Counted from the first letter of the stretch, positions 8,818-26,393 are shown. The stretch: 41,747 nt of DNA from Minisyncoccota bacterium (GCA_036517135.1 DATDXX010000051.1:1-41747), one strand, 5' to 3'. Notes: generated by a model not told the origin, from the sequence alone. Numbers and translations: made by a program.

Positions 8818-9261
8818 TCATATTGATTCAACTAAAAGTTTCACCTTAACCTTTTTGTTTCCTGCTTTTACCTCTATATTGTGCGGGCCCGTTTCCTTGA
8901 TGTGTTTTTCGAGAATTATAAAATCGGGATTTATATCGGCACCAATTGATTCTTTTATCGCGATAGCAATTTCAGGCGCGTGCAGACTTGCAAAAAGATG
9001 CCCCTTTTCATTTACTTTCGCCCTTATCACCACTTCTTTATTTTCAATTTCGTGTATATTCTTGGACAGAAGATCTCCTTGAATTTTCCTTTCCACCTCC
9101 AATTCAGCTTTCAGGACATCGATTTTTTTTAATGCTTCTGGAGTCGCAACTTTCACTGCACCTTGTGGTATGAGAAAGTTCAGAGCATAACCGTCCGTCA
9201 CATCCTTGACATCATATTTTTTGCCTATCTTTTGAACGTCTTTAAGAAGAATAACTCTCAT
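8818..9261 (-). CDS. rplI: 50S ribosomal protein L9
   Basis: MRVILLKDVQKIGKKYDVKDVTDGYALNFLIPQG. I prefer the ATG at 9261 over the longer track ORF (9300). Confidence 0.9.
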   Translation of the reverse strand: MRVILLKDVQKIGKKYDVKDVTDGYALNFLIPQGAVKVATPEALKKIDVLKAELEVERKIQGDLLSKNIHEIENKEVVIRAKVNEKGHLFASLHAPEIAIAIKESIGADINPDFIILEKHIKETGPHNIEVKAGNKKVKVKLLVESI

Positions 9262-9396
9262 AGCACGACACGAATTACGAATAAATACAGCGAATGACAC
9301 AAATGGGTTTCAGAGCGCAAGTTATGTATTTGTATTTCTTCGTATTTCATAATTAGTGTTATTCGTATGAATTCGTGTATTAGTGCCGCGTATATC
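9262..9396 (-). repeat. Intergenic repeat R1 (paralogous to 28328-28427), abutting the rplI start codon
   Basis: Blocks shared with R2: gcgacac.aattac, gcgaatgacac, ttat(g)tatttgta, ttcgt.tttcat, attcgtgtatt.gtg. On the minus strand it ends GTAATTCGTGTCGTGCT-ATG. Confidence 0.65.
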
Positions 9397-10629
9397 TTAT
9401 AATTTTCGTGCTAAATCCAGCGCCTTATCCATCTGGGGATCTTTTTTGTTCCTGATGTCGTCATCAGTGCGCCTTATCTCATAGTCCGGATTGATCCCGT
9501 TGTGTGAAATTGAGGTGCCATTCGGGGTGAGCCATCTTGCAACCGTTATTTTCAGTAGCGTATCATCAGTCAGTGGAACGAGTTCCTGAACAGATCCTTT
9601 GCCATAAGTTTTTGTACCGACTAAAACTGCCCTTCCCGAGTCTCTCAAAGCTCCAGCGAGAATTTCAGACGCAGATGCGGTATTTTCATTCACAAGAATC
9701 ACGATCTTCATGTTTTGACTGAATAAATTATATCCCCTGCTATAGTAAACATTCGGTTTGTTGTTTTTACCGAAGTCCTCCGTAACGATCTTCGATCCTG
9801 GAGGTAAAAACCAGCTTGCCATATCAACCGCCGCTTCCAGATATCCACCAGTATTGTTTCTGAGATCCAGAACAATATGGCTGTATCCGGAGTCAACAAA
9901 TTCGCGTAGAGCATTGCGAAAAAGCTCCGGCGAATTAGCGGTAAAGCTCATCACTCTGACAACAAATACTCCTCCGGCCTCTTTTTTTGTTTCTACAACA
10001 GGAGTAGTAATAGTGTCCCTTGTGATTGTTATTGTGAACAGATCGTATCTGCCCGTTCTTTTTATTGTGAGTGTTACGTTTGTACCTTTTTTGCCTCTTA
10101 TTTTTTGAACTGCATCTTCTATTATTATCCCTTCTGTCGAGACCTCGTTTATTTTTACTATAGTGTCACCGTCCAGAATGCCTGACTTTTGCGCTGGAGA
10201 ATCTTTTATGACAGAAGTTACACTGAGGAAACCGTCCTTGATTCCCAAAAGCGCACCAATGCCTTCAAGACTCCCTGATAAATCACTAGTGAGATTTTTT
10301 GCTTCATCAGGTGTTAAAAATGTCGTATAAGGATCACCAAGAGACTCCGCAAGACCCTTGACTGCGCCATATATCTTATTTTCATCAGTGGTCGTGACCG
10401 AACTGGAAGCGCTTGTCGGAATATATTTTTGATTCAAAATATCCCACGCGCGCCAGAAAATAGAAAGGTCAATATCCGAATGAGTAGATTCCGCTGTTGC
10501 AGAAAGTGCACCGGAACTATTGTAAATAGTGGCTTTTTGGGCATCCACATAAAGCCCGGCAAAAAAAGCTAAGGCAATTGTAAAGGTTGCCGCTGCGGCA
10601 ATTGCGATTTTTTTAATTGCTGAAGACAT
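9397..10629 (-). CDS. ctpA: S41-family C-terminal processing peptidase with PDZ domain
   Basis: N-terminal anchor, PDZ (GILDGDTIVKIN), serine motif NENTASASEILAGAL, lysine motif TYGKGSVQ. Confidence 0.85.
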   Translation of the reverse strand: MSSAIKKIAIAAAATFTIALAFFAGLYVDAQKATIYNSSGALSATAESTHSDIDLSIFWRAWDILNQKYIPTSASSSVTTTDENKIYGAVKGLAESLGDPYTTFLTPDEAKNLTSDLSGSLEGIGALLGIKDGFLSVTSVIKDSPAQKSGILDGDTIVKINEVSTEGIIIEDAVQKIRGKKGTNVTLTIKRTGRYDLFTITITRDTITTPVVETKKEAGGVFVVRVMSFTANSPELFRNALREFVDSGYSHIVLDLRNNTGGYLEAAVDMASWFLPPGSKIVTEDFGKNNKPNVYYSRGYNLFSQNMKIVILVNENTASASEILAGALRDSGRAVLVGTKTYGKGSVQELVPLTDDTLLKITVARWLTPNGTSISHNGINPDYEIRRTDDDIRNKKDPQMDKALDLARKL

Positions 10630-10644
10630 TCAGCGATTATATCA
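10627..10644 (-). promoter_or_regulatory. Leaderless-type promoter: TGaTATAAT-N6-ATG of ctpA
   Basis: Minus strand tga tataat cgctga ATG (revcomp of 10627-10644). Confidence 0.55.
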
Positions 10645-10719
10645 AAAAAACCTAAAGTAGCAAGAAAAAACAATAAAAAAGTGCCTTTTTCAGACACTTG
10701 TGCCATTTACGGAATGGTC

Positions 10720-11007
10720 TTAGGCTGCTTTTGCCTCGAGCCGATACAGAATCACTGACCGACAGGAGGTGTGAGAATGAAGCTTTGCCACAAGCCCTGA
10801 TTCATTCGCAATTTCATTCGCGATCGTTTCAAGGCTTTTACTCCCCCAGTCTCGTCGCGACCATTTCCCTTCTGAGAGAAAGTCGTATTGAGGCGACAAG
10901 ATGTCGATGGATGGCCGGTCTTCATTCCAGCCAATGCAGATGTAGAAGCCTACAGCCAAGCGGTTTCGATGGCTTTTCGCCATCATCGTCGAAGCGGATT
11001 TGTTCAT
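10720..11007 (-). CDS. Hypothetical small protein (~95 aa); coding status uncertain
   Basis: The minus-strand ORF reads protein-like (GFYICIGWNEDRPSIDILSPQYDFLSEGKWSRRDWG). TTGACA and TATTCT promoter-like boxes lie upstream and a weak hairpin plus U-run follows the stop. However, the locus is GC-rich and open in three frames. Confidence 0.4.
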   Translation of the reverse strand: MNKSASTMMAKSHRNRLAVGFYICIGWNEDRPSIDILSPQYDFLSEGKWSRRDWGSKSLETIANEIANESGLVAKLHSHTSCRSVILYRLEAKAA

Positions 11008-11079
11008 GGCCAACGAGAATACTGAGCTTGTAGCATGGATTTGTCAACCAAGCATATAAACAGTTATAATCTAAGAACA

Positions 11080-11203
11080 GTCCCGTTCGAAATCACACAG
11101 TTGCGATTTTCAATAAACGGGATAAAAGCAAAAAGGTCTATTTATTATTTAAAAGCAATTAGCAAATACGGAAATACCGAGCATTTCCTATTTCGAATGG
11201 GAT
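11080..11203 (+). mobile_element. MITE-like element, copy A (124 bp) with 14-nt terminal inverted repeats; right end overlaps the corA-like ATG
   Basis: GTCCCGTTCGAAAT (11080-93) ... cggaaataccgagcatttcc hairpin ... ATTTCGAATGGGAT (11190-11203). Collinear with the reverse complement of 14503-14627 (shared centre gcaaaaaggt; last 37 nt 34/37 identical). Confidence 0.6.
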
Positions 11204-12122
11204 GATAAAAGAATATAGTTATAAAGGACTAAAATGGCTTGACCTTGAAAATCCCGAGGAAAAGGAGGTAAACGAAATAATGCACCGCTTTAATGTTTCT
11301 GCGGAGGCTGTTGAAAATCTATTATCCCCTACCCCCAAGCAGCGTGTGGTACTGTATCCGTCCTGCGTTTACATAGTTCTTCATTTTCCCACTCTGTCCT
11401 TCCATAAGAATGCGTTTCAAGGAGAAGGTCACCGCAAAGAAATAGATTTTTTGGTTGGCAAAAATTTTCTTTTGACGGTGCATTATGATCCAATGACAGC
11501 CATAAAAAAATTCTCGGAATTTTTTGAGCGAAGTAAAACAGAGCAAGGTGTTGAGGAGAATGCCGGCGTCATATTTCATCGGCTTGTAAAACATTTATAC
11601 CATTCGCTTTTGTATGATGTTGAGGTAATAAAAGGGCTTCTGCAAAAGGCGGAAAATTCAATCTTCAAGGGCGAGGAGAAAAAGATGGTGGCGGAACTTT
11701 CTCAGATACATCGTGATATCTTGAAATTTAACAATGCCCTGCTGCCTCATAGAGAAGCTATAGAGGCATTGCGTGGAATATTTAGAGGCTTTCTTGGCGA
11801 TAGCTCCGAATCGATAATTCACGATATAAAAAGCGAGTATGATCGTGTTGACAGAAGAATGCAGAGCAACAAGGCCTTGCTTGAGGAGTTAAGACACACT
11901 AATGATTCTCTGTTATCAGCAAAACAAAATGAGGCAATGAAAGGCCTTACTATGATGGCATTCATTACCTTTCCTTTAACATTGATAGCTGCAATATTTG
12001 CAATGAGGACAGAGTCTACGCCTTTTATTGGAAATCGCTACGATTTTGTCATCGTCATCTGCATAATGCTTATCGTAATACTGAGCTGTGTTACATTTTT
12101 TAAATACAAAAAATGGCTGTAG
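11202..12122 (+). CDS. corA: CorA-family metal ion transporter with non-canonical AMR in place of the GMN motif
   Basis: CorA-like length and architecture, two C-terminal TMs, LTMMAFITFPLTLIAAIFAMRTES..KKWL. Confidence 0.7.
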   Translation: MIKEYSYKGLKWLDLENPEEKEVNEIMHRFNVSAEAVENLLSPTPKQRVVLYPSCVYIVLHFPTLSFHKNAFQGEGHRKEIDFLVGKNFLLTVHYDPMTAIKKFSEFFERSKTEQGVEENAGVIFHRLVKHLYHSLLYDVEVIKGLLQKAENSIFKGEEKKMVAELSQIHRDILKFNNALLPHREAIEALRGIFRGFLGDSSESIIHDIKSEYDRVDRRMQSNKALLEELRHTNDSLLSAKQNEAMKGLTMMAFITFPLTLIAAIFAMRTESTPFIGNRYDFVIVICIMLIVILSCVTFFKYKKWL

Positions 12123-12129
12123 CAAATAA

Positions 12130-12157
12130 AGCTTTGAGCTTAGTGCTTGTGGCTTGA
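12130..12157. repeat. Phased 7-nt array AGCTTTG AGCTTAG TGCTTGT GGCTTGA between corA-like and cysS
   Basis: [AT/G]GCT at 12130, 12137, 12144 and 12151. Confidence 0.5.
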
Positions 12158-12164
12158 AGTTAAA

Positions 12165-13559
12165 ATGAAAAAATTTTTTTTATTCAATACTCTTGGAAAA
12201 CGGAAACAGGAATTTAAGCCTATAAAAAAAGGTGAGGTATCTATGTATTCTTGTGGGCCGACTGTCTACAACTTTCTTCATATCGGTAATCTGCGCGCTT
12301 ATACTTTTGCTGATGTCTTGAAGCGCGTGCTTATCTACAATGGCTACAAGGTAAAGCATGTGATGAATATAACAGACATAGGTCATATCGTTGCCGACGC
12401 TGATATAGGCGAAGACAAAATGGTAAACGCGCTGATGCGTGAGAAAAAGCCAATGACGCTTGCTGCAATGAAAGAAGTTGCAAACACATACTACGAAAAA
12501 TCACGAGAGGATATGCAGAAAATGAATATATTACCCGCTGACGATTATCCCTTTGCAAGTGAGCATATCAAAGATGACATTGCGATAATTGAAGCGCTCT
12601 TGAAAAAGGGTACCGCCTACAAAACAGCAAGCGGTATTTATTTTGATACGAAAAAATTTCCCAATTATGGAGTATTGGGTGGTGCGATTGCGGATAATGG
12701 GCACTCGCGGATTGGTATTGTAGGCGAGAAGAGACATCCCGAGGATTTTGTTTTATGGAAACCCGCAGATGAAACTGGATTGGGATACGATTCGCCTTTT
12801 GGCAAAGGATTTCCCGGATGGCACATTGAATGTTCTGCTATGAGTATGAAATATCTGGGTGTTTCTTTTGATATCCATACAGGAGGCATCGACCTCATCC
12901 CTGTGCATCACAACAACGAGATAGCGCAATCTGAAAGCTACACAGGAAAACAATTTGTTCGATACTGGCTTCATAATGCTTTCATCACCATCGGTGACGA
13001 CGAAAAAATGGCAAAGTCAGGAGAAAATTTTATCACTTTGCATACTTTGGGAGAAAACGGGATTCATTCCCTCGCCTACCGCTATTGGCTTTTGACAGCC
13101 CGATATTCTACCCGCATGGATTATTCATTAGAAGCTATATCAGCAGCTCAAGTTGCTTACGAGAGACTTCATGAATGTTTTAGAAAACTTGGAGACGAGA
13201 TTGGTGTGATAAATTCTTCGTATCAGAAAAAATTTCTTGAGGCGATAAATGATGATCTTGATACCCCAAAAGCTTTAGCTCTTGTGTGGGAATTAGTGAA
13301 GGATGTCAAAATAAGCGATGAGGATAAGAAAGCGACGTTCTTAGATTTTGATAGAGTACTGGGACTCATGCTCGGACATGTGACAAAAGAAAAAGTCATG
13401 GTAACTGGCGAAGTCCAAAAACTGCTTGATCTGAGGCAAAAGGCGCGAGTTATAAAAGATTGGACCAAAGCAGACGAGTTTCGCAAGGAGATTGAAAAAC
13501 ATGGTTTTGCTGTTAAAGACGGAAATGACGGGACTCAAACGTTGACAAAAACTCAATAA
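12165..13559 (+). CDS. cysS: Cysteine--tRNA ligase
   Basis: MYSCGPTVYNFLHIGNLRAY (HIGH), KMAKSGENF (KMSKS). ATG at 12165 preferred over the track start at 12147. Confidence 0.93.
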   Translation: MKKFFLFNTLGKRKQEFKPIKKGEVSMYSCGPTVYNFLHIGNLRAYTFADVLKRVLIYNGYKVKHVMNITDIGHIVADADIGEDKMVNALMREKKPMTLAAMKEVANTYYEKSREDMQKMNILPADDYPFASEHIKDDIAIIEALLKKGTAYKTASGIYFDTKKFPNYGVLGGAIADNGHSRIGIVGEKRHPEDFVLWKPADETGLGYDSPFGKGFPGWHIECSAMSMKYLGVSFDIHTGGIDLIPVHHNNEIAQSESYTGKQFVRYWLHNAFITIGDDEKMAKSGENFITLHTLGENGIHSLAYRYWLLTARYSTRMDYSLEAISAAQVAYERLHECFRKLGDEIGVINSSYQKKFLEAINDDLDTPKALALVWELVKDVKISDEDKKATFLDFDRVLGLMLGHVTKEKVMVTGEVQKLLDLRQKARVIKDWTKADEFRKEIEKHGFAVKDGNDGTQTLTKTQ

Positions 13560-13762
13560 GGTGATATAATTGCTCTGAATAGATGTATTAAGTGGGCCAG
13601 TCCTCATGGCTTCAATCGTTTTATTTTATTGACATTTTGCTTGTGAACGGGTTCTTACTTGTCCCAATTCATAAGCGCTATAGTCATTGAATAGAAGTGA
13701 TTTGCCATGGGGCTCGCCCACATAATACATTTTGTTGCTTTGTTCAGCCTATTGGCTGCTGG

Positions 13763-13799
13763 GGACCGCGAATTAATGTCAGAAACATTTTCGCGGTCC
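13763..13799. terminator. Strong 15-bp hairpin in the convergent cysS / nucleotidyltransferase gap (possible terminator)
   Basis: ggaccgcgaa tt aatgt cagaa acatt ttcgcggtcc. Only a weak T-tract follows on +. Confidence 0.35.
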
Positions 13800-13817
13800 T
13801 TGTCTATTAGAAATCTT

Positions 13818-14504
13818 CTACTTTTTCATTTTGAAATACTGCTCTGCTATTTCCAGATCCTCAGACAAATTTACCTGAAGCCAAAATCTTGCCTGTACAG
13901 ATTTTATTTCGTGATCTCTTTTTGCCAATAGTATTGTTTGAGGTAATCCGTATTCCCCTCCTCCAATAGATAACATTTCATAATTAAAAATTTCGGGAGT
14001 TAAAGAATACATTCCGGTGCAGATAAATCCGGGCTCATCTTTTGTATATCTTTCAAGAACATCTTTTATTCTGCCTTCTTTGTCAAAAACTACTTTCGCG
14101 CGGCCAAGGACTGAATCTCTTTCTGACACCAGTACTGACCACGGCTCTCTTAGACATTCTTTCATATCTTCTGGTGCATAAATATCATCTCCCATCATTA
14201 CTAAAAATTTTTCTTTGTTTTTTAGATGTTCTTTACAGATCCAGAGTGCATGCGCAGTGCCTAAAAGCTCTTTCTGCTCTATGTAAGTAATTTTTAGACG
14301 GCCGTAGTTTTCGGTTAAAAGAGTTATGATTTTTTCTTTGAGATAGCCGACAACTAGAACAACCTCGCTAACAGAATCTGGGAGCTCGTCAAGTTTATGT
14401 TCAAGCAAAGTTTTTCCAAGCACCTTCAACAAGGCCTTTGGAGTCTCCTTGCCAACATCACCCATCCTAGTGCCCTTCCCTGCTGCTAGTATTACGGCGA
14501 TCAT
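13818..14504 (-). CDS. Sugar-phosphate nucleotidyltransferase (NTP_transferase family)
   Basis: MIAVILAAGKGTRMG signature and 228 aa. Sugar specificity cannot be read from the sequence. Confidence 0.75.
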   Translation of the reverse strand: MIAVILAAGKGTRMGDVGKETPKALLKVLGKTLLEHKLDELPDSVSEVVLVVGYLKEKIITLLTENYGRLKITYIEQKELLGTAHALWICKEHLKNKEKFLVMMGDDIYAPEDMKECLREPWSVLVSERDSVLGRAKVVFDKEGRIKDVLERYTKDEPGFICTGMYSLTPEIFNYEMLSIGGGEYGLPQTILLAKRDHEIKSVQARFWLQVNLSEDLEIAEQYFKMKK

Positions 14505-14627
14505 CCCGTTTGAAATAGGAAATGCTCGGCATTTCCGTAGCGATTACCTTTATTAATTTGTATATTTACCTTTTTGCGCATTACTTTGTTATATCGTAAA
14601 CCTAAATTACCGGATTTCGAACGGGAC
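14503..14627 (-). mobile_element. MITE-like element, copy B (125 bp), inverted relative to copy A; left end overlaps the nucleotidyltransferase ATG
   Basis: ATCCCGTTTGAAAT (14503-16), hairpin ggaaatgc-tcg-gcatttcc, ATTTCGAACGGGAC (14614-27), followed by the palindrome gggacaagcttgtccc. Confidence 0.6.
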
Positions 14628-14690
14628 AAGCTTGTCCCCACTTTACCAACATTTTATGCGGAATTCAAACTTTTTGAGCCACCCCACTGG

Positions 14691-14708
14691 TGCTACAATA
14701 GCCCCATG
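14691..14708 (+). promoter_or_regulatory. Leaderless-type promoter: TGcTACAAT-N6-ATG of dnaB
   Basis: tgc tacaat agcccc ATG(14706). Confidence 0.55.
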
Positions 14709-16091
14709 GCTAAAACTTTTAAAGATATACGAGTCCCGCCGCAAAACCTAGAAAGCGAAATGGCGCTTTTAGGCGGCATAATGATGCATCCTGATTCAAT
14801 CCACGACGTAACTGATACTATTGTCTATGATTCATTTTATGCTGACAAGCATAAAGATATTTTTGAAACAATGCTTGAGCTTAGTGGTAAGGGCGACCCG
14901 ATTGATCTTCTTACTCTTTCGGCGCGGCTAAAAGAAAAAAAGATTCTGGAGAAGATCGGCGGTCGTGCATATCTTACTGAGTTGATACAGAGTATCCCTC
15001 CGGCTTCCAACATCCGGCATTACGCGGAGATTGTGCACAAAAAATATATTCTCCGTCGGTTGATAGAGGCGGCAGAAAATATAGGCGAGATGGGATTTGA
15101 TGAGAACAAGGATATTGACGAGCTTTTAGATCGCGCGGAAAAACAAATTTTTGATATAACAAATTCTTCAAGTTCTTCCAAGTTCGTCTCACTCGGCTCA
15201 ACATTGGACGAAGCATGGGAACGCTTGGACAGGATGCATCGCTCAAAAAACGAGCTTCGTGGCATTTCTACCGGCTTTAGGGACTTGGATAACATTCTTT
15301 CGGGGCTTCAGAAGTCAGATCTCATTATTCTTGCCGCAAGGCCGTCTATGGGTAAGACCGCACTCGCCCTGGACATTGCGCGCCAAGCGGCTATAAAGGG
15401 TACGGCTGTAGGCATTTTCTCCTTAGAAATGAGTTCCCAGCAGCTTGTGGACAGAATGATGTCTGCTGATGCTATGGTGAACTCTTGGAAGCTTCGCACA
15501 GGCAAGCTTTCAATAGAACATGATTTTGAAAAAATAAAGCACTCAATGGATCGCCTTTCTAAAGCGCCGATATATATAGATGATCAGCCCGGAAATAATA
15601 TTTTGAAAATGAAATCTGTCGCAAGAAAGCTCAAGATAGAGAAAAAACTCGGTCTTGTGGTCGTGGATTACCTTCAGCTTATGATGCCGACCGGAAATTA
15701 CAAGCAATCAGATAACATGGTTCAGCAGGTAACCGAAATTTCGCGCTCATTAAAACAGCTTGCGCGCGAGCTTGAGGTTCCTGTGCTTGCCCTATCCCAG
15801 CTTAATCGCTCAGTGGAAACTCGAGGCGGTTCAGGTAGGCCGAAGCTTTCGGACCTTCGTGACTCCGGCTCAATTGAACAAGATGCTGATGTGGTAATGT
15901 TTATTCATAGAGAAGATAAATACAAAGAAGACTCCGACAAAAAAGGTATCGCCCAGATACACATAGACAAGCACAGGAACGGGCCTGTCGGTTCCATAGA
16001 GCTATTCTTTGACGAGGAGCGCACCACATTCCTAAATATTGACCGGACCAACATTGCTGACTTCACTAAAGAGGAGGAACAGGTATTCTAG
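14706..16091 (+). CDS. dnaB: Replicative DNA helicase DnaB
   Basis: MAKTFKDIRVPPQNLESEMALLGG N-terminus, Walker A ARPSMGKTA, DYLQLM, RDSGSIEQDADV. The track ORF start (TTG 14574) lies inside the MITE-like element and is rejected. Confidence 0.93.
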   Translation: MAKTFKDIRVPPQNLESEMALLGGIMMHPDSIHDVTDTIVYDSFYADKHKDIFETMLELSGKGDPIDLLTLSARLKEKKILEKIGGRAYLTELIQSIPPASNIRHYAEIVHKKYILRRLIEAAENIGEMGFDENKDIDELLDRAEKQIFDITNSSSSSKFVSLGSTLDEAWERLDRMHRSKNELRGISTGFRDLDNILSGLQKSDLIILAARPSMGKTALALDIARQAAIKGTAVGIFSLEMSSQQLVDRMMSADAMVNSWKLRTGKLSIEHDFEKIKHSMDRLSKAPIYIDDQPGNNILKMKSVARKLKIEKKLGLVVVDYLQLMMPTGNYKQSDNMVQQVTEISRSLKQLARELEVPVLALSQLNRSVETRGGSGRPKLSDLRDSGSIEQDADVVMFIHREDKYKEDSDKKGIAQIHIDKHRNGPVGSIELFFDEERTTFLNIDRTNIADFTKEEEQVF

Positions 16092-16093
16092 GA

Positions 16094-16125
16094 AGCTTAT
16101 GAGCTAGCGAGCTTTAGAGCTTGTC
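16094..16125. repeat. Phased 8-nt array AGCTTATG AGCTAGCG AGCTTTAG AGCTTGTC between dnaB and recR
   Basis: AGCT at 16094, 16102, 16110 and 16118. Confidence 0.7.
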
Positions 16126-16145
16126 AGAAACACTGAAACAAAAGC

Positions 16146-16748
16146 ATGAACTCGTTTGAAAAGCTAAAAGAATTATTCAGGGATTTTCCGGGTATTGGAC
16201 CGCGACAAGCAGAGAGATTCGCATATTTTTTACTTGCTAAAAACCCTGCCTATATTGAAGAATTAAAATCGCTACTAGGCGAGCTCAAAAAGGATGTGGC
16301 GCAATGTAAGGAATGCATGCGATATTTCGCCAAGAAGAGCGGAGGCACTCTCTGTCCTATTTGTATAGATGAAAGTAGAGATGAGGCGCTTCTGATACTC
16401 GTAGCCAAGGATAGCGACCTTTTAACAATAGAAAAAAGTGGGGCATTCAAAGGCAAATATTTCATCCTTGGTGGACTCGTGCCGATATTGGAAAAGGAAC
16501 CGACGAAAAAAATCCGCCTCGCTTCACTATTATCTTTAATCCAAAAAAGAAAAAGTGTAAAAGAGATAATCTTGGCTCTTTCCGCCACACATGAAGGCGA
16601 AAACACGGAAGAGATACTAAAAAAATCAATCACAGAAATCGCCCCTCAAATCAAAATTTCTCACCTCGGTCGCGGTCTCTCCACCGGCCTTGAAATAGAA
16701 TATTCCGATAGCGACACCATCAAAGCCGCGTTGGAAAACAAGAGGTAA
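16146..16748 (+). CDS. recR: Recombination protein RecR
   Basis: FPGIGPRQAERFAYFL (HhH), C4 zinc finger CKECMRY..CPIC, Toprim-like C-terminus. Confidence 0.9.
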   Translation: MNSFEKLKELFRDFPGIGPRQAERFAYFLLAKNPAYIEELKSLLGELKKDVAQCKECMRYFAKKSGGTLCPICIDESRDEALLILVAKDSDLLTIEKSGAFKGKYFILGGLVPILEKEPTKKIRLASLLSLIQKRKSVKEIILALSATHEGENTEEILKKSITEIAPQIKISHLGRGLSTGLEIEYSDSDTIKAALENKR

Positions 16749-16776
16749 ACATTTTCAACGACCGTTGAAAATGTTT
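16747..16776 (+). terminator. 13-bp hairpin overlapping the recR stop (possible terminator, poor U-tract)
   Basis: aaacattttcaac-gacc-gttgaaaatgttt. Confidence 0.4.
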
Positions 16777-16785
16777 ACCTTGTGG

Positions 16786-16819
16786 AATAAAAAAGACCGA
16801 CATCAGAGTTTGATGTCGG
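16786..16819 (-). terminator. Intrinsic terminator of the minus-strand gene 16843-17415
   Basis: Minus strand ccgacatca-aactc-tgatgtcgg followed by tcttttttatt. Confidence 0.7.
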
Positions 16820-16842
16820 TGGAGCGAGTGTCGCCGCAGGAT

Positions 16843-17415
16843 TCAGGATTCGGCTGGAAGCGGAATGGCTGAATCGATCCTAGGATGACTTTGCTCGTGC
16901 TTATCCTCCCAGGTGATCTGGTCCGATGTCGGATGGAATGAAAGCTCGGGAAATTCACCCGATTGGAAAACAAGAAAACACCCTTCGCTCAAGGATTTTG
17001 CTCGGGAATGGTCCTTGCTCTTGCACGCTTCCAGGAGCTCTCGAGAGAGATTTGCCGGCCTGAATACATAGCGATACATGTTCCCAGAATCCCAGGAAGC
17101 TACCATGCTTTCAGAGTTTACCTCCGCTTTCCACATGCAGAGCATGGGCAATTCCTTGCTATACATGCCAGCAAATTGGGCAAAATAGATCCCTGCCTCT
17201 GGCAATAACTCATTTGGGTCCAGCATGAAAGCTTTGTTTCTGAGATAGGCATCTTGTGCCATAGAACTAAGCCAAAGCGAGAGCCAAATGATAATGCCAC
17301 TCAGAATGAGCATGTATTGAGTCGCATATGGGTGTGGAAAACTTCGCGTGGCGAAGTAGCACACAGCAAAGACGACGACAAGAAAAGTCCACCAAATAAT
17401 ATTTCGAAGCTTCAT
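16843..17415 (-). CDS. Hypothetical membrane protein (two predicted TM helices)
   Basis: MKLRNIIWWTFLVVVFAVCYF..MLILSGIIIWLSLWLS. ATG at 17415 preferred over GTG at 17436. No recognisable domain. Confidence 0.55.
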   Translation of the reverse strand: MKLRNIIWWTFLVVVFAVCYFATRSFPHPYATQYMLILSGIIIWLSLWLSSMAQDAYLRNKAFMLDPNELLPEAGIYFAQFAGMYSKELPMLCMWKAEVNSESMVASWDSGNMYRYVFRPANLSRELLEACKSKDHSRAKSLSEGCFLVFQSGEFPELSFHPTSDQITWEDKHEQSHPRIDSAIPLPAES

Positions 17416-20853: not shown

Positions 20854-21402
20854 TTATTTTTTGCAGACACTACTGTTGTGTATTGAGAAATAAAGCTCTT
20901 TCTCTGGTTCATCGTTTCCATTATCACTAGGAGCTATTGCAAAAGCATGGGCAGCTTCTACCTCTGCTTGCAAGCAATTGTTTAAGCTAAGAAAAGCTTT
21001 AGCTCTCTGGGTCCAAAAATAGGGATCGCAATACCACACACCACTATCACTCAAATATTTATCGCCCATTGCTATTACTTCCTCATACTTCTTTTCCTCC
21101 ATTAAACGCGAGATCTCCAGGTCATTAGCACTCTCACTTTTGGGTTCAAATAGATAGTCCTCACATCCTAGAAATTCTTTAGGATATTTATCTGTATAGT
21201 TTCTAATTATATCTTTATACTCTGTATCTCCCACAAGCTCTTCAACTCTTGAATTAAAGTATTGTTTTGCCCATTCAGGCGTGTATGTTATTTCTTGATT
21301 TAATTTAATTAATTTATCATTGAAATTTATATAAACCCAAAGAGCTAGTAACAAAAAAAATACAATCAATAACCACCAACTGTACTTTGTAAATTTTTCC
21401 AT
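20854..21402 (-). CDS. Hypothetical membrane-anchored protein (182 aa), helical-repeat-like ectodomain with 4 Cys
   Basis: N-terminal TM WWLLIVFFLLLALWVYI. No recognisable catalytic motif. AT-rich gene. Confidence 0.55.
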   Translation of the reverse strand: MEKFTKYSWWLLIVFFLLLALWVYINFNDKLIKLNQEITYTPEWAKQYFNSRVEELVGDTEYKDIIRNYTDKYPKEFLGCEDYLFEPKSESANDLEISRLMEEKKYEEVIAMGDKYLSDSGVWYCDPYFWTQRAKAFLSLNNCLQAEVEAAHAFAIAPSDNGNDEPEKELYFSIHNSSVCKK

Positions 21403-21411
21403 TTAGATTAT

Positions 21412-22056
21412 TTAGTTTTGTTTAAATTTAAGATTTTTCATCAAATTTTCTGCCATCAATCTCTTTGCTTTGATTTTTACCTTTCTTCTATGAATTTCTG
21501 TTATCGCCCCAACCTTTCCGCTATTTCTTAAATGTCTATCCAGCTGAATCCTATATTTGATTGCTAAATTAATGATTCCGTTAAATCTAATCTTGGCGAC
21601 TTCTTTTTTTTTATTAATAAAATAAATATACTCTACTCTGCAGAGTTTTGTATATTGTTTCCAAAAATTCAAATTCAAAATAAAGCAGTCAAGTAAAACC
21701 TGATAAATGCCATTCATTTTGTATTTCTGGTCCCTTTTTCCTCCCCAATAGCCACAACCGATTGCCCAACAAATACAAAAGTACTGGCTCCGATAAAAAT
21801 TTTTATTCTTCATTTTTTCCGGACGATACACAAGTGGTGCTACCGTCAGTCCGGCAATAGCGGCAGCTGATGGTCCTCTGATATACTTGGCTTCTATCAG
21901 TAGAACCCTATTTTTGTGTTCAACTTGCAAATCCCACCCGGTCGCTGATCTTCCCGTACGTGGTTTATGCTTTACCTCCCAATAAGCTCCAGACAGTTTG
22001 CGGCTCTGAAAATATTTTTCTAGAGGATTTACTACAAATTTTTCTTCTTTGGTCAT
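21412..22056 (-). CDS. Hypothetical protein with PD-(D/E)xK nuclease-like motif
   Basis: GWDLQVEHKNRVLLIEAKY fits D-x(n)-E-x-K of restriction-endonuclease-fold proteins. Basic C-terminus. AT-rich. Confidence 0.5.
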   Translation of the reverse strand: MTKEEKFVVNPLEKYFQSRKLSGAYWEVKHKPRTGRSATGWDLQVEHKNRVLLIEAKYIRGPSAAAIAGLTVAPLVYRPEKMKNKNFYRSQYFCICWAIGCGYWGGKRDQKYKMNGIYQVLLDCFILNLNFWKQYTKLCRVEYIYFINKKKEVAKIRFNGIINLAIKYRIQLDRHLRNSGKVGAITEIHRRKVKIKAKRLMAENLMKNLKFKQN

Positions 22057-22266: not shown

Positions 22267-23340
22267 TTATGGGTAGAATTCTTCACGAGGGTCCCAGATT
22301 TTTCTCCAGTAATCATTATATTCATCTTTATTGGTAAACTGTTTCCATGTCCGCCAGCCCTCGTCCAAAGTCTTGCCTTTAACAGCGGCAAGCAATTTTT
22401 GTGTCGGCCTCCAATCCAAAGAAAGTAAATCACAAACTTTATCGAAGCAAAAACATCTTATCCAAACGGCCTTTTCAAGCAACTGTTCTTCAGGTAATTC
22501 AGTTAGGTAAATCCATTGCCTTGACCCTTCCTCCCCAAGATTTTGGGTTAAGTTTTTAATGATACTCATATCAGTCACAGATTTTCCATCAATTATTATC
22601 TTCCACTCTTTCAAACCACTTATCACATCTCCCTCGTATTGAGTATGGCATGCAATAAGATCAGTTCTGAACTTCACTCCTTCATATATTACTAGGAGAT
22701 CAATTTTTTCGCATTTAGAATTTACATTTGGCCAGATTTCAGTTGGCTTGAGATGTCGCATTTCCTTTATAACCAAGATTTTCCCGTTGCCTAAATCATA
22801 TGGTCCCCAGTTCTCCACTGCCTTGCCCATATAAAAATCCAGATAGAGTGCGGCGCCTAAATTGTAAGCAGAATTATAAAGCTTGCCGAATTCGCGAGCG
22901 ATTTCGGGCGTCCCTTTATTGAATTCTCCTTCATTAATAATCTGCTTTATTGCTAGAGAAGAATGCCTCTTGGTGCTGCCGTTAAGGCCGAATAAATCCC
23001 CTTGCGGCATTTGAGCTTTTAGCAATTGGTAGAAAAAGTCCGCGACTTTAAGGCGTTTCTCAATCGGCCATTTTGCTGTTTTCAGATCCTCTGTTACAAA
23101 CAATAAATGTTCCCTGCATAAATCCGGTTCAAAACATTTTGCGAGTTCTGTATAAGACACTTTCTGTCTTTCTGCTTCTCCTATGATATTCCATAGCCAA
23201 TCTAACCACTCTTTTGCTATCAATGGCTGAAAATGCCTCCATGACGTCGGCTGCAGAGTCGACAAATCCATAAAGCCAATCGACTCTTGAAGAGCGTCAA
23301 GATATTCATCAAGCCACAAAAATTTCTCCTGTTGTTCCAT
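22267..23340 (-). CDS. Unknown-function protein, partner B of swivel-domain module 2 (357 aa; paralogue of 23641-24735)
   Basis: Shares with its paralogue W[LI]DE[YF], GPY, E[IL]WP, LVIY, [AG]CHT and DW[RK]PT blocks in the same order. I saw no ATP-grasp or PEP/pyruvate TIM-barrel motifs. Confidence 0.7.
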   Translation of the reverse strand: MEQQEKFLWLDEYLDALQESIGFMDLSTLQPTSWRHFQPLIAKEWLDWLWNIIGEAERQKVSYTELAKCFEPDLCREHLLFVTEDLKTAKWPIEKRLKVADFFYQLLKAQMPQGDLFGLNGSTKRHSSLAIKQIINEGEFNKGTPEIAREFGKLYNSAYNLGAALYLDFYMGKAVENWGPYDLGNGKILVIKEMRHLKPTEIWPNVNSKCEKIDLLVIYEGVKFRTDLIACHTQYEGDVISGLKEWKIIIDGKSVTDMSIIKNLTQNLGEEGSRQWIYLTELPEEQLLEKAVWIRCFCFDKVCDLLSLDWRPTQKLLAAVKGKTLDEGWRTWKQFTNKDEYNDYWRKIWDPREEFYP

Positions 23341-23638
23341 TTACGATTATTTTTTGGCCATCTTGTAATTTACTCGTTGCCTCTTTTGTATTCACCACGC
23401 ATGGAATGCCAAGTTCTCTCGAGATTATTGAAGGATGAGAAGTAATGCCGCCAATATCGCAGACGATAGCGGATGCCTCATTCATTATCATCACCATTGT
23501 GGGATCGGTGATTTTAGTTACAAGCACGTTTCCTTCTTTAAATTTATTAAAATCGGCCCTGCTGTTAATGACACAAACAGCACCTTCCGCTGTACCGGCA
23601 GAAGTTCCCATCCCTTTCAGTACAATTTCATTACTCAT
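23309..23638 (-). CDS. Stand-alone PEP-utilizing-enzyme mobile (swivel phosphohistidine) domain protein 2 (109 aa)
   Basis: LVTKITDPTMVMIMNEASAIVCDIGGITSHPSIISRELGIPCVVNTKEAT..G..I.V.G.TGEIF is the canonical PEP-utilizers pattern (TdP..., GG.TSH, RE.GIP.V). Confidence 0.85.
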   Translation of the reverse strand: MSNEIVLKGMGTSAGTAEGAVCVINSRADFNKFKEGNVLVTKITDPTMVMIMNEASAIVCDIGGITSHPSIISRELGIPCVVNTKEATSKLQDGQKIIVNGTTGEIFVA

Positions 23639-23640
23639 GA

Positions 23641-24735
23641 TTATCTAGAATTGAGCACTTCATCTTCAAATTTTTGTATATTGAATACTTCCCTATATTG
23701 CTTAACGCTTGTCATCATTATGTCATTCGGAAGCAGACCTTTTGGAAGCGGTCTATCTTTAATCCTTTCAATCATCTCCCCTGTCGGCTTCCAATCAACT
23801 GCCGCTTCAACAAAAAGCTTTTTTAATTGGTAGCAGACCTGTAGCATGACTTTTTCTTTCAACTCTTCAAAATTCATGCTTCTTATCTTTTTGTATATTT
23901 TTTCGGCTTTTTCCGATAATTCAACTACAAGATTTTTTATTTCTGTTTCCGAAAGCAATTTACCGTCGCCATAGACAGCAAATAATTTCATCCCTTCAAC
24001 AGGATTGCCGATTTTGCTTATGGTATGGCAGCCGACTGCGGATATTTCCCAAGTAACGCCCTGATACAAATTATATATTACTAGCTCTTTTGTTCGCGAC
24101 AAAAATTCCAAAGGCCACAACTCTTTTGGATTAAGATCAGGAAAATGCCTTATGAGCATTGTATATTGCTCTTCATCTTTTTCTAAAACATAAGGACCAT
24201 AAACATCCCATGCAAAATCGGTAACCACATCATTGTAAATGCCATGAACAAGCGATCCGGCGGCTGTATTTAATTTACCTAAAAGACGTGCATCTTCTAT
24301 TTCTGATTGGGAAAGAGAAATGTTAGAAATGATTTTTTTTACTTCATCTTCGTTATGAAAAGGATTTGTAGAGATGGCAAAAGGATCTTTTGGACAGCAT
24401 TCAATGAGCATTCTAGCTAAAAAATCAGTTACCAATTTGGTATCTTTAACTTTTTTCTCGCGCCACGCAGGATAAGTTGCGATAATTTTTATCAACATCG
24501 CCCTCATATTTGATGGCGTAGGCAATAAATGTTTTATTTCTTTAAAACTTTTGTTTTGGAGATCAAGAGCACGGATACACTTTGCAATTCTCCCTACCCA
24601 AATGTCATACCACATCGGAAAAAAACGATAAAAATCGATTGGCTGAAAATTTGCAATTGTGTTGCCTGCAAACAGACCAAAAGACCCCTTTGCGAATTCG
24701 TCAATCCACTTCATAGATTTCGCCAGTTGTGCCAT
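23641..24735 (-). CDS. Unknown-function protein, partner A of swivel-domain module 1 (364 aa)
   Basis: Paralogue of 22267-23340 (see motifs there). Its start overlaps the upstream swivel gene by 35 nt. Confidence 0.7.
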   Translation of the reverse strand: MAQLAKSMKWIDEFAKGSFGLFAGNTIANFQPIDFYRFFPMWYDIWVGRIAKCIRALDLQNKSFKEIKHLLPTPSNMRAMLIKIIATYPAWREKKVKDTKLVTDFLARMLIECCPKDPFAISTNPFHNEDEVKKIISNISLSQSEIEDARLLGKLNTAAGSLVHGIYNDVVTDFAWDVYGPYVLEKDEEQYTMLIRHFPDLNPKELWPLEFLSRTKELVIYNLYQGVTWEISAVGCHTISKIGNPVEGMKLFAVYGDGKLLSETEIKNLVVELSEKAEKIYKKIRSMNFEELKEKVMLQVCYQLKKLFVEAAVDWKPTGEMIERIKDRPLPKGLLPNDIMMTSVKQYREVFNIQKFEDEVLNSR

Positions 24736-25036
24736 CTACTAAAATTAAATCCCCATTCTTGATGATCTTAGTAGCCTCCTTTGTGTTAACTATACAAGGT
24801 ATCCCCATTTCACGGCTCAATATTGCCGGGTGCGATGTGACTCCGCCGGTATCCGTAACGATGGCCGCTGCCTTAACCATTGCCTGAACCATCGTAGGAT
24901 CAGTCAGCGAGGTAACCAATATATCTCCCTCACTAAACGCGACATTATCCTCGCCCGGCATAAAGATCTTTGCTCTACCTTGCACACTGCCAGTGCTTGC
25001 AGGAATGCCTTTAAGAATGAGTTTCCTCTTTTCCAT
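24701..25036 (-). CDS. Stand-alone PEP-utilizing-enzyme mobile (swivel phosphohistidine) domain protein 1 (111 aa)
   Basis: LVTSLTDPTMVQAMVKAAAIVTDTGGVTSHPAILSREMGIPCIVNTKEAT..GDLILVDGTTGEIY. Confidence 0.85.
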   Translation of the reverse strand: MEKRKLILKGIPASTGSVQGRAKIFMPGEDNVAFSEGDILVTSLTDPTMVQAMVKAAAIVTDTGGVTSHPAILSREMGIPCIVNTKEATKIIKNGDLILVDGTTGEIYEVD

Positions 25037-25904
25037 AATTCAAAAGCTCTCTCAATCTGTTATTGTCTATTGTATATTCAATCCCGCGTATTGTTACTGC
25101 AACTGCAGACTCACCTGCTTCATCTGTGCTCACCGTGCTCTCCCAATTGCCTAATACTTCCAGGCTTCCTCCTAATTCTTCAACTCGTGTAATACGATGA
25201 TTATCTGATTTCCTGATAAGAACTCCAGAAACTAGGAATGGCTCTGTAATTGTTTTGTGGGTAATATGAAATAGATCCAACTTTGAATCTGAATATAATT
25301 TAGTAGCTAATCGCTCATGGCGTCTGTTAAAAAGCACTGCAAATTTTGAAGCTACCTTCTCCGGAGGATAAAGTCTTGCCAGTTCATTATCATCTCCCGA
25401 GAGCCATTCCATTATCACAGGCTCCTCTGCAACTTCTGCTATTTCTTCTTGTTGATTCGGTGAAAGAGTGGAAAATTCCACTGATATACCTTTCTCTTTC
25501 ATTATTTTTTTCCTTTCTACCACAAACTTCTCATCGTAAAGTTTTAAAAAATCTGGAGGAAATGACATGGACAGCTCATTTTTAACACGAAATGATTCCC
25601 TAATCGGTGCATCTTTATTAGCTTCCTGATAACCTTTTAGAATATTCTCAACAGTCTCAGATGTCCGCTTAGAGTCACTTATATAAGCCTTGGCGCCATC
25701 CGATTGTCCCTCTACTTTTAGGCCGAAATCGTGCGATTGAATTACCCCCTTTTCTGAAATCGAAGATGTGGATACTGCAGTCGCTTCCTTGTTGGCTATT
25801 GCCCCGCTCGTTTTTTGAGCATGTCTCACCCAGAAATTATGCACGGTGACCCTTTCACCTATTTTTGGCCTCTCAACGCTTTCCGCCAATTTTTGATCAA
25901 TCAT
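25011..25904 (-). CDS. Histidine phosphatase superfamily (phosphoglycerate-mutase-like) protein
   Basis: VRHAQK (RHG-type motif), SEKGVIQS, AYISDSKRTSETVENI, LFHITHKTI (second His) in the canonical order, with a long insertion between them. Confidence 0.6.
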   Translation of the reverse strand: MIDQKLAESVERPKIGERVTVHNFWVRHAQKTSGAIANKEATAVSTSSISEKGVIQSHDFGLKVEGQSDGAKAYISDSKRTSETVENILKGYQEANKDAPIRESFRVKNELSMSFPPDFLKLYDEKFVVERKKIMKEKGISVEFSTLSPNQQEEIAEVAEEPVIMEWLSGDDNELARLYPPEKVASKFAVLFNRRHERLATKLYSDSKLDLFHITHKTITEPFLVSGVLIRKSDNHRITRVEELGGSLEVLGNWESTVSTDEAGESAVAVTIRGIEYTIDNNRLRELLNYGKEETHS

Positions 25905-25916
25905 ATCCTTGAGGAT

Positions 25917-26393
25917 TTATTTTATATCTCCCAATAAGTCTTTCAACAAATCTTTCCGTTCCATAAATCGTGTCAAAATAATCTCAGGGTTAAATTCTGA
26001 TGCCTCTACTGCCCTTGCCGTCCAACCTCGCTGGTCTCCAAGAGCTTTTTTTTGAGCACGAGCAATGTTGCCAATAATTGAATTTTGTAATCTGCTATGT
26101 AGCGCAGATTTCGCCACTTCCACATCAAATTCTCCATCGCGAAATCGTTTTCGAACATCCTCTATCGCGTCTCGATTTTCTGCAACTGCCTCTGTAATAG
26201 CCTTATCAATATACTCATTTCTCTTTTGTACAAGAGCGTCTTGGTTGATTCTTCCTTCATAGGGATCTACTGCATCAGTTACTGGTATTCTGAGCTTCCC
26301 TGGTGGCCTAGCGACGGGCTCGTTTGTCAAATCGTCGAGCTTCTTTCTTCTTTCTGGAGGAATATCATAATTAAATCCTTTTTCTTTATTCAT
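25917..26393 (-). CDS. Hypothetical protein (158 aa), first gene of the swivel-domain operon
   Basis: ATG ORF, charged and helical-looking. 12-nt gap to the phosphatase gene. TATATT -10-like box 8 nt upstream. Confidence 0.55.
   Translation of the reverse strand: MNKEKGFNYDIPPERRKKLDDLTNEPVARPPGKLRIPVTDAVDPYEGRINQDALVQKRNEYIDKAITEAVAENRDAIEDVRKRFRDGEFDVEVAKSALHSRLQNSIIGNIARAQKKALGDQRGWTARAVEASEFNPEIILTRFMERKDLLKDLLGDIK

Follow-up and report, generated by a model that had tools for sequence, protein, structure and literature searches.

Dikinases that pass a phosphoryl group through the histidine of a mobile swivel domain are, to our knowledge, normally built as one chain, or at most as two with the swivel fused to the substrate domain. 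Could such an enzyme be taken apart altogether, with every domain encoded as a protein of its own? The question is raised by a gene cassette on the minus strand of a 41,747-nt stretch of DNA from a Minisyncoccota bacterium (GCA_036517135.1, DATDXX010000051.1; the whole stretch is referred to below as the window). In this cassette, two free swivel proteins of ~110 amino acids (aa) are each followed by the gene of a ~360-aa protein, here called partner A and partner B, and a gene for a protein with a predicted histidine-phosphatase fold lies upstream. We consider it somewhat more probable than the contrary that these genes specify components of a phosphotransferase that belongs to the swivel-histidine dikinases and is fully split into several proteins, with its ATP-grasp component encoded separately.

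The closest described systems are HpeHI, CreHI and PpsAB (phenylphosphate synthase), two-component small-molecule dikinases in which the swivel is always fused to a substrate domain of the rifampin phosphotransferase (RPH) type (PMC12167813). The phosphorylated intermediate of the Hpe pathway is later dephosphorylated, which gives a precedent for a split dikinase and for a pathway that employs both kinase and phosphatase (PMC12167813). These enzymes have a separate ATP-grasp polypeptide of the PPDK_N type (the N-terminal domain of pyruvate phosphate dikinase, PPDK), and their swivel histidine carries the phosphoryl group to a second substrate site, two features shared with the arrangement proposed here. 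In contrast, the swivel of the present system is a free ~110-aa protein, the second-site protein does not have the RPH fold (no PDB match), two paralogous modules stand in tandem, and the ATP-grasp gene is usually not adjacent.

RPH is a single chain of ATP-grasp, rifampin-binding domain and swivel (PMC4844700). The system proposed here would have the same three functional parts, ATP-grasp, phosphohistidine swivel and acceptor-binding domain, and the swivels match the RPH model; the parts differ in being separate genes in the order swivel, partner, (ATP-grasp), with a partner unrelated to the rifampin-binding domain. With phosphoenolpyruvate (PEP) synthase and PPDK the resemblance lies in the swivels, which are most similar to the central swivel of PEP synthase, and in the ATP-grasps next to the module in other genomes, which are canonical PPDK_N, whereas the cassette lacks their PEP/pyruvate TIM-barrel domain. 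With Enzyme I and HPr of the phosphotransferase system (PTS) it shares a homologous swivel histidine domain and the idea of a small diffusible phosphohistidine carrier that serves several acceptors, but there is no PEP-binding domain of Enzyme I and no homologue of HPr, EIIA or EIIB, and the carrier is the swivel itself. A system of phosphotransfer from ATP-grasp via swivel histidine to acceptor domain is of an already known kind. Five features are new, in the sense of undescribed in the literature searched: a free swivel as carrier, a partner family whose fold is absent from the PDB, a histidine-phosphatase subfamily dedicated to such loci, tandem modules that have co-diverged, and an ATP-grasp that is highly conserved and apparently acts in trans. 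That literature describes neither the partner family nor any free swivel protein to which a function has been assigned.

A preliminary description, made from the sequence alone, had listed six co-directional minus-strand open reading frames (ORFs), and all six are present:

25917–26393, minus strand: 158-aa ORF directly 5' of the cassette; no significant Pfam, NCBIfam or PADLOC match
25011–25904, minus strand: 297-aa protein placed in the histidine-phosphatase superfamily by its predicted fold and invariant catalytic residues
24701–25036, minus strand: swivel 1, 111 aa, A-type; PF00391 match over the full profile
24830–24832, minus strand: codon of His69 of swivel 1 (GGVTSH), predicted phospho-acceptor, read from the sequence
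23641–24735, minus strand: partner A, 357–364 aa, member of a Patescibacteria family that is uncharacterised; proposed to bind the acceptor substrate or to be the catalytic component
23309–23638, minus strand: swivel 2, 109 aa, B-type; PF00391 match over the full profile
23435–23437, minus strand: codon of His68 of swivel 2 (GGITSH), predicted phospho-acceptor, read from the sequence
22267–23340, minus strand: partner B, 357 aa, B-type subfamily; paralogue of partner A

The genes are tightly packed. A 12-nt gap separates the 158-aa ORF from the phosphatase-like gene, which overlaps swivel 1 by 26 nt. The overlap of swivel 1 with partner A measures 14–35 nt and is reduced to the 14 nt ATGAAGTGGATTGA if partner A begins at Met8, a family-conserved methionine (24714) that is the probable start. 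A gap of 2 nt follows between partner A and swivel 2, and swivel 2 overlaps partner B by 32 nt or less.

Both ~110-aa proteins match PF00391 over positions 1–72 of its 72, swivel 1 with E = 6e-28 (96.7 bits) and swivel 2 with E = 4e-25 (87.6 bits), at a gathering cutoff of 23.1 bits. With both GG(V/I)TSH motifs present, this bears out the initial view of them as complete, stand-alone PEP-utilizer mobile domains, and both are intact. The histidine of the phospho-accepting loop (G-G-x-T/S-S/C-H) is His69 in swivel 1 and His68 in swivel 2, and this predicted acceptor is kept in 35 of 35 module swivels. Within NCBIfam, either protein aligns best with the PEP synthase model NF005057, at its central swivel (E = 1e-34 to 4e-35); the RPH model also matches (E about 1e-22 to 1e-24), and models of the Enzyme I type match more weakly (E = 1e-7 to 1e-13).

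The two partners are paralogous to each other (25% identity, E = 2e-28) and have no match in Pfam, NCBIfam, PADLOC or the sequences of the PDB. No Pfam domain was found in any of 97 close homologues of partner A, and those named at source are all 'hypothetical protein' and all from Patescibacteria. The family is large, with at least 445 representatives at 50% identity in an exhaustive profile search, and diverse, with a median identity of 24%; among 94 full-length representatives, 12 are A-like, 23 B-like and 59 neither. With 53 homologues as input, AlphaFold2 models partner A (predicted local distance difference test, pLDDT, 93.6; predicted template modelling score, pTM, 0.92) as 170 all-alpha N-terminal residues, a six-stranded antiparallel sheet and C-terminal helices. 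Compared by Foldseek at the level of the whole chain, this model found nothing at E <= 0.001 in the PDB (best E = 0.19, template modelling score, TM, about 0.13) and nothing at E <= 0.001 among the viral structures of BFVD. The weak top matches, to CapZ, TolC, Hsp90 and histidine-kinase ATPase domains, were discarded at TM about 0.1.

Are the partners simply divergent pieces of a familiar enzyme? Structures of PEP synthase, PPDK, Enzyme I and RPH are all present in the PDB. Were the locus a split or degraded version of ordinary PEP synthase or PPDK, its partners would be divergent PPDK_N or PEP-utilizers_C domains or pseudogene fragments. It is indeed with the central swivel of PEP synthase that the swivels align best, and the partners, at ~360 aa, are close in size to the flanking domains of that enzyme. 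A PPDK_N identity was rejected, since the partner family has no Pfam match, hhalign gives it a probability of 0.09% against PPDK_N, and no PEP synthase, PPDK or RPH structure appears among the Foldseek matches listed. A PEP-utilizers_C TIM barrel was likewise rejected: the model is not (beta/alpha)8, and there is no match in Pfam, NCBIfam or the PDB. The rifampin-binding domain of RPH was a third candidate, and no RPH chain (5HV1, 5FBS) occurs among the 50 best Foldseek matches listed. The model is thus neither barrel nor ATP-grasp, no chain of PEP synthase, PPDK, Enzyme I or RPH is among the matches listed for it, and 36 loci preserve the ORFs as intact, separate genes. Profile, hhalign, fold and conservation results together refute a split or degraded PEP synthase or PPDK, to which we attach next to no probability, and the absence of PPDK_N and TIM-barrel signatures noticed at the outset is upheld by the profile, hhalign, AlphaFold and Foldseek checks. 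A pseudogene origin is at odds with the wide distribution of full-length homologues, the existence of natural fusions and the intactness of the ORFs as separate genes.

Across the partner family, the conserved polar residues are R78, D117, Y167, D169, D/E177, Y182, Y224, H237, D257, E290 and K293; judged from the alignment, they look like an active or ligand-binding site. H237 is kept in 78% of the family, with N, R or E in its place in about 20%. Within the A-type alignment, to which partner B also belongs, the Cys236-His237 pair does not vary.

We surveyed 36 non-redundant loci from genomes and metagenomes, the window included. A swivel gene lies upstream of the partner gene, usually overlapping it, in 38 of the 38 partner genes that have upstream DNA; the gene association seen in the window is hence a conserved one. 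Two-module loci also occur at L011 and L020. B-type loci were retrieved from metagenomes in a scan seeded with a three-sequence alignment, and the B-type homologues of L032–L036 are 54–69% identical to partner B, each preceded by a swivel of the swivel 2 type.

The two swivels of the window are about 50–52% identical, in line with the first estimate by eye. Swivel 1 shows 73% identity to the A-type swivels of other genomes versus 50% to swivel 2, and swivel 2 shows 72–73% to the swivels that precede the B-type partners of L032 and L035. As each swivel is closer to swivels of its own type elsewhere than to its neighbour, the unit of swivel and partner was duplicated long ago and has co-diverged since, which gives the duplication with divergence proposed earlier an ancient date. 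Across loci, swivel identity follows partner identity with a Spearman coefficient of 0.83, a correlation that in part reflects phylogeny and does not prove that the two proteins pair physically.

Where is the enzyme that would charge these swivels? In other genomes, PPDK_N follows the partner immediately at L001, L005 and L034 and lies 2.3 kb downstream of it at a fourth locus, L006, and in P0109 a partner is fused to a canonical PPDK_N (E = 2e-97). The PPDK_N proteins that adjoin the module are canonical (E about 1e-99); that of L005 is a stand-alone protein of 312 aa, and that of L034 follows a B-type module, so the linkage spans A-type and B-type modules. Swivel and partner are themselves fused in P0102, P0107 and P0141, and P0170 and P0179 carry a further domain, X, in the order X, swivel, partner. 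Stand-alone PPDK_N proteins of ~312 aa are plentiful and unusually well conserved; the best 120 matches have 304–333 aa and are 64–87% identical, and those among them with a named organism all come from Patescibacteria or Parcubacteria. From the adjacency and the fusion we conclude that the overall logic is probably that of the known dikinase class, fully split into separate proteins.

These observations bear directly on the idea of a self-contained system without ATP-grasp. Here the partner would bind PEP or another high-energy phosphate and charge the swivel, and the phosphatase-fold protein would act through its own phosphohistidine as terminal phosphotransferase or mutase. Such a scheme gains from the 17 of 20 well-flanked loci that have no PPDK_N within 5–10 kb, as is also the case for the contig of the window, from the tight and reciprocal linkage of the phosphatase-like gene to the module, and from the fact that the superfamily includes mutases with phosphohistidine intermediates. 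It is contradicted by P0109 and by the adjacency in L001, L005 and L034, in which all three parts co-occur, so that the partner is not a replacement for the ATP-grasp. Moreover, half of the loci have no phosphatase-like gene, and the gene is frameshifted in L026 and a remnant in L015; having been lost or decayed in many loci, it cannot be an obligatory step. We regard this scheme as improbable, and the new relay put forward in the preliminary description is probably not self-contained either, given the PPDK_N that adjoins the partner in three loci, lies near it in a fourth and is fused to it in P0109.

One of the loci with adjacent PPDK_N, L001 (Candidatus Moraniibacteriota CP064975.1), has a 1521-aa ORF made up of PPDK_N and two swivels, followed by a 1128-aa ORF with three swivels. 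These giant ORFs (9077–16872) lie directly downstream of a swivel and partner pair and look like a multi-module, multi-carrier dikinase. Searches of Pfam and PDB sequences gave no match for the domains between their swivels (~330–420 aa), and by hidden Markov model (HMM) these domains are not homologous to the partner. Public gene calls split the two ORFs differently, and frameshifts or assembly errors are possible.

Swivels also occur in other contexts. A ~350-aa protein with an unannotated N-terminal domain of ~250 aa and a C-terminal swivel is encoded at L004:4571-5617, L031:4465-5517 and L043:4033-5094; outside the swivel these proteins have no match in Pfam or PDB sequences, and by HMM they are not partner homologues. 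At L043 such a protein is found with a TrmB gene, a protein with a faint His_Phos_1 match, an ATP-grasp and another swivel protein. L044 combines an X-swivel protein and an ATP-grasp with a remote member of the phosphatase-like family (E about 1e-10), and L045 has an ATP-grasp with no swivel nearby. In P0170, domain X (~320 aa, residues 1–330 of P0170 and P0135) is fused upstream of swivel and B-type partner, while in P0135 it joins a B-type partner without an intervening swivel; P0099 consists of two partner domains one after the other. Domain X has no Pfam match, and P0170 has no match in PDB sequences outside its swivel. The possibility that the domain X of P0170 and P0135 corresponds to the phosphatase-like protein was considered, and the two were found to be unrelated.

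The third component of the cassette is the 297-aa protein. Its assignment in the preliminary description to the histidine-phosphatase family is borderline by Pfam: His_Phos_1 reaches 21.4 bits at a gathering cutoff of 21.7, and over the N-terminal 78 residues only. Matches of the family profile to PDB sequences are also below threshold (E = 0.09–1.7), so we turned to fold prediction, which bears the assignment out. With the AlphaFold2 model (pLDDT 93.5), Foldseek retrieves 107 PDB matches at E <= 1e-3, the top one being 5cdh_B (E = 8e-8); the 50 best matches listed all belong to the histidine-phosphatase superfamily with probability 1.00, and the matched folds include acid phosphatases, phytases, TIGAR, RosC, BPGM and PGAM5. 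R27, H28, R80, E157, E161 and H216 are invariant in 35 homologues and supply the expected catalytic core, made up of the RH motif with its nucleophilic His, a second Arg, an acidic proton donor and a second His. Superfamily membership is thus based on predicted fold and catalytic residues, and by these the protein is a genuine and probably active member. It shares the fold and the invariant R-H, R, E and H with acid phosphatases, phytases, TIGAR, RosC, dPGM/BPGM and PGAM5. Unlike these, it is marginal by sequence and has a large helical insertion of ~85 residues (about 117–200), and its type forms a Patescibacteria family dedicated to loci with swivel and ATP-grasp. The catalytic motif of this family is RHA or RHS, not RHG.

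What might such an enzyme act on? The name 'histidine phosphatase' refers to the catalytic histidine of the enzyme and not to a phosphohistidine substrate. Mutases working through phosphohistidine intermediates belong to the superfamily, and some of its members, SixA and PGAM5, dephosphorylate phosphohistidine proteins. A phosphatase-like gene is part of the cassette at 17 of 36 loci, intact in 15, frameshifted in one (L026) and reduced to a remnant of ~50 aa in one (L015). Its position varies: it stands before the swivel, between swivel and partner in L029, or after the partner in L017 and L031. Reciprocal look-ups starting from phosphatase homologues led in 3 of 3 cases to an adjoining swivel and a ~360-aa gene.

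A second family, of ~232 aa, is encoded directly 5' of the swivel at eight loci (L020:8860-9555, plus strand; L012, L015, L019, L022, L023, L026 and L028), mostly where the intact 297-aa phosphatase-like gene is absent. Its N-terminus (RRHAxYxKP ... RN.EGG..TA) recalls motifs of His_Phos_1. No link to the phosphatase family emerged, with hhalign probabilities of 0.3–0.4% and no support from Pfam or a PDB profile search. The ~232-aa family may represent a non-orthologous replacement of the phosphatase-like gene.

Taken as parts of a split dikinase, the components could work together as follows. A stand-alone PPDK_N ATP-grasp encoded elsewhere in the genome would use ATP to phosphorylate the histidine of the free swivels (His69 or His68). 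Each phosphorylated swivel would then dock on its own cognate partner, A or B, and the partner (~360 aa, fold not in the PDB) would bind the second substrate and catalyse phosphoryl transfer onto it, the two paralogous modules providing two specificities. The histidine-phosphatase-fold enzyme might hydrolyse the phosphorylated product, a downstream intermediate or the phospho-swivel.

Several points weigh against this reading. The 41.7-kb window and the extended source contig of 48.8 kb contain no ATP-grasp gene, and one was found nearby in only 4 of 36 loci, or 3 of the 20 that have at least 5 kb on both sides; charging in trans is therefore putative in this organism. Nothing in the partner is recognisable as a motif for substrate binding or phosphotransfer, nor does it have a structural relative, and its putative role as acceptor is for this reason read from the architecture alone. 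Finally, to combine a kinase with a phosphatase in one operon would be futile unless the two have different targets.

A regulatory phosphorelay resembling the PTS, as the preliminary description had read the cassette, would assign these proteins differently. The partner would be the final phospho-acceptor or a regulated effector, and the phosphatase-fold protein would reset the phospho-protein in the manner of SixA. The free swivel indeed resembles a carrier protein, TrmB-family regulators recur nearby, SixA and PGAM5 provide examples of enzymes that act on phosphohistidine proteins, and the partner offers a candidate acceptor in H237, conserved in 78% of the family, with the invariant Cys236-His237 pair of the A-type alignment. 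H237 is not invariant, however, and the most conserved polar residues are Asp and Tyr, which resemble a site for catalysis or ligand binding. Neither a DNA-binding nor an output domain is present in the partner, and the diversity of its subfamilies (12 A-like, 23 B-like, 59 other) fits a diversification of substrates better than an end-point of regulation. A relay of this kind appears to us unlikely, and we retain the split dikinase as the preferred explanation.

The split dikinase may be part of something larger. It is conceivable, at odds we put somewhat short of even, that Patescibacteria possess a distributed 'carrier-protein' dikinase network, in which one conserved ATP-grasp would charge many free or fused swivels, each serving a co-evolving acceptor enzyme, with the ~360-aa partners as one family of acceptors, while the phosphatase-fold enzyme would close the cycle. 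If so, the network would realise a PTS-like logic with dikinase parts, its substrates would possibly be carbohydrates, and it would be relevant to the episymbiotic lifestyle. Conservation of the cassette in the reduced genomes of Patescibacteria implies an important and undescribed phosphorylation chemistry. Three or four small soluble proteins make up a defined, testable set for finding the substrate, and the free swivel would suit the study of carrier-domain specificity. New family definitions might be drawn up for both the partners and the phosphatase subfamily.

A gene for a TrmB-family regulator, a family described as sugar-specific, recurs near the cassette in 9 of 36 loci, for example at L004:1267-2004, L012:7943-8695 and L031:2829-3626, as well as at the P0264 locus and, in three copies, at L043; the window contains none. 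We take this recurrence as a weak hint at carbohydrate-related substrates.

Could the cassette instead belong to an anti-phage defence or other conflict system that makes use of phosphotransfer? Its paralogous families are modular and diversify fast, the neighbourhoods vary, and a Fic/RhuM gene recurs in six loci. On the other hand, PADLOC gave no significant match for eight proteins of the region (best E = 0.0035 over 41 residues), there are no viral structural relatives, the flanking genes of the window are housekeeping genes, and the ATP-grasp is conserved at 64–87% identity, which is unlike defence genes. A role in defence therefore strikes us as very improbable, well behind the split dikinase. 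The RhuM/Fic-domain proteins (L021:3750-4757, minus strand; L009, L020, L022, L026 and L028) are found in related genomes, where their recurrence probably reflects shared synteny and not a functional link.

The 158-aa ORF had been counted as a member of the system. It has no homologue in the other 35 loci and is hence not a conserved part of it; apparently it is lineage-specific. A gap of 53 nt separates it from a VIT1-family gene upstream. At the other end of the cassette, 210 nt with a promoter-like site lie between partner B and the next gene. Promoter and terminator scans gave counts near the shuffled expectation and were uninformative. Two further minus-strand ORFs follow 3' of partner B, of 214 aa (21412–22056) and 182 aa (20854–21402), neither of which matches a known family or has homologues in the other 35 loci; the shorter protein carries a hydrophobic segment at its N-terminus. 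The neighbouring genes of the window encode housekeeping proteins, among them MurF, PBP2, RmuC, DnaB, CysRS, LysRS and MreB. Four cassette-bearing metagenome-assembled genomes (MAGs; L006, L007, L019 and L025) are titled 'uncultured Gammaproteobacteria' in third-party annotation (TPA) assemblies, probably as automated taxonomic mislabels. A Candidatus Paceibacterota MAG (Patescibacteria/Candidate Phyla Radiation, CPR) encodes a 'hypothetical protein' with exactly the sequence of the 297-aa protein of the window.

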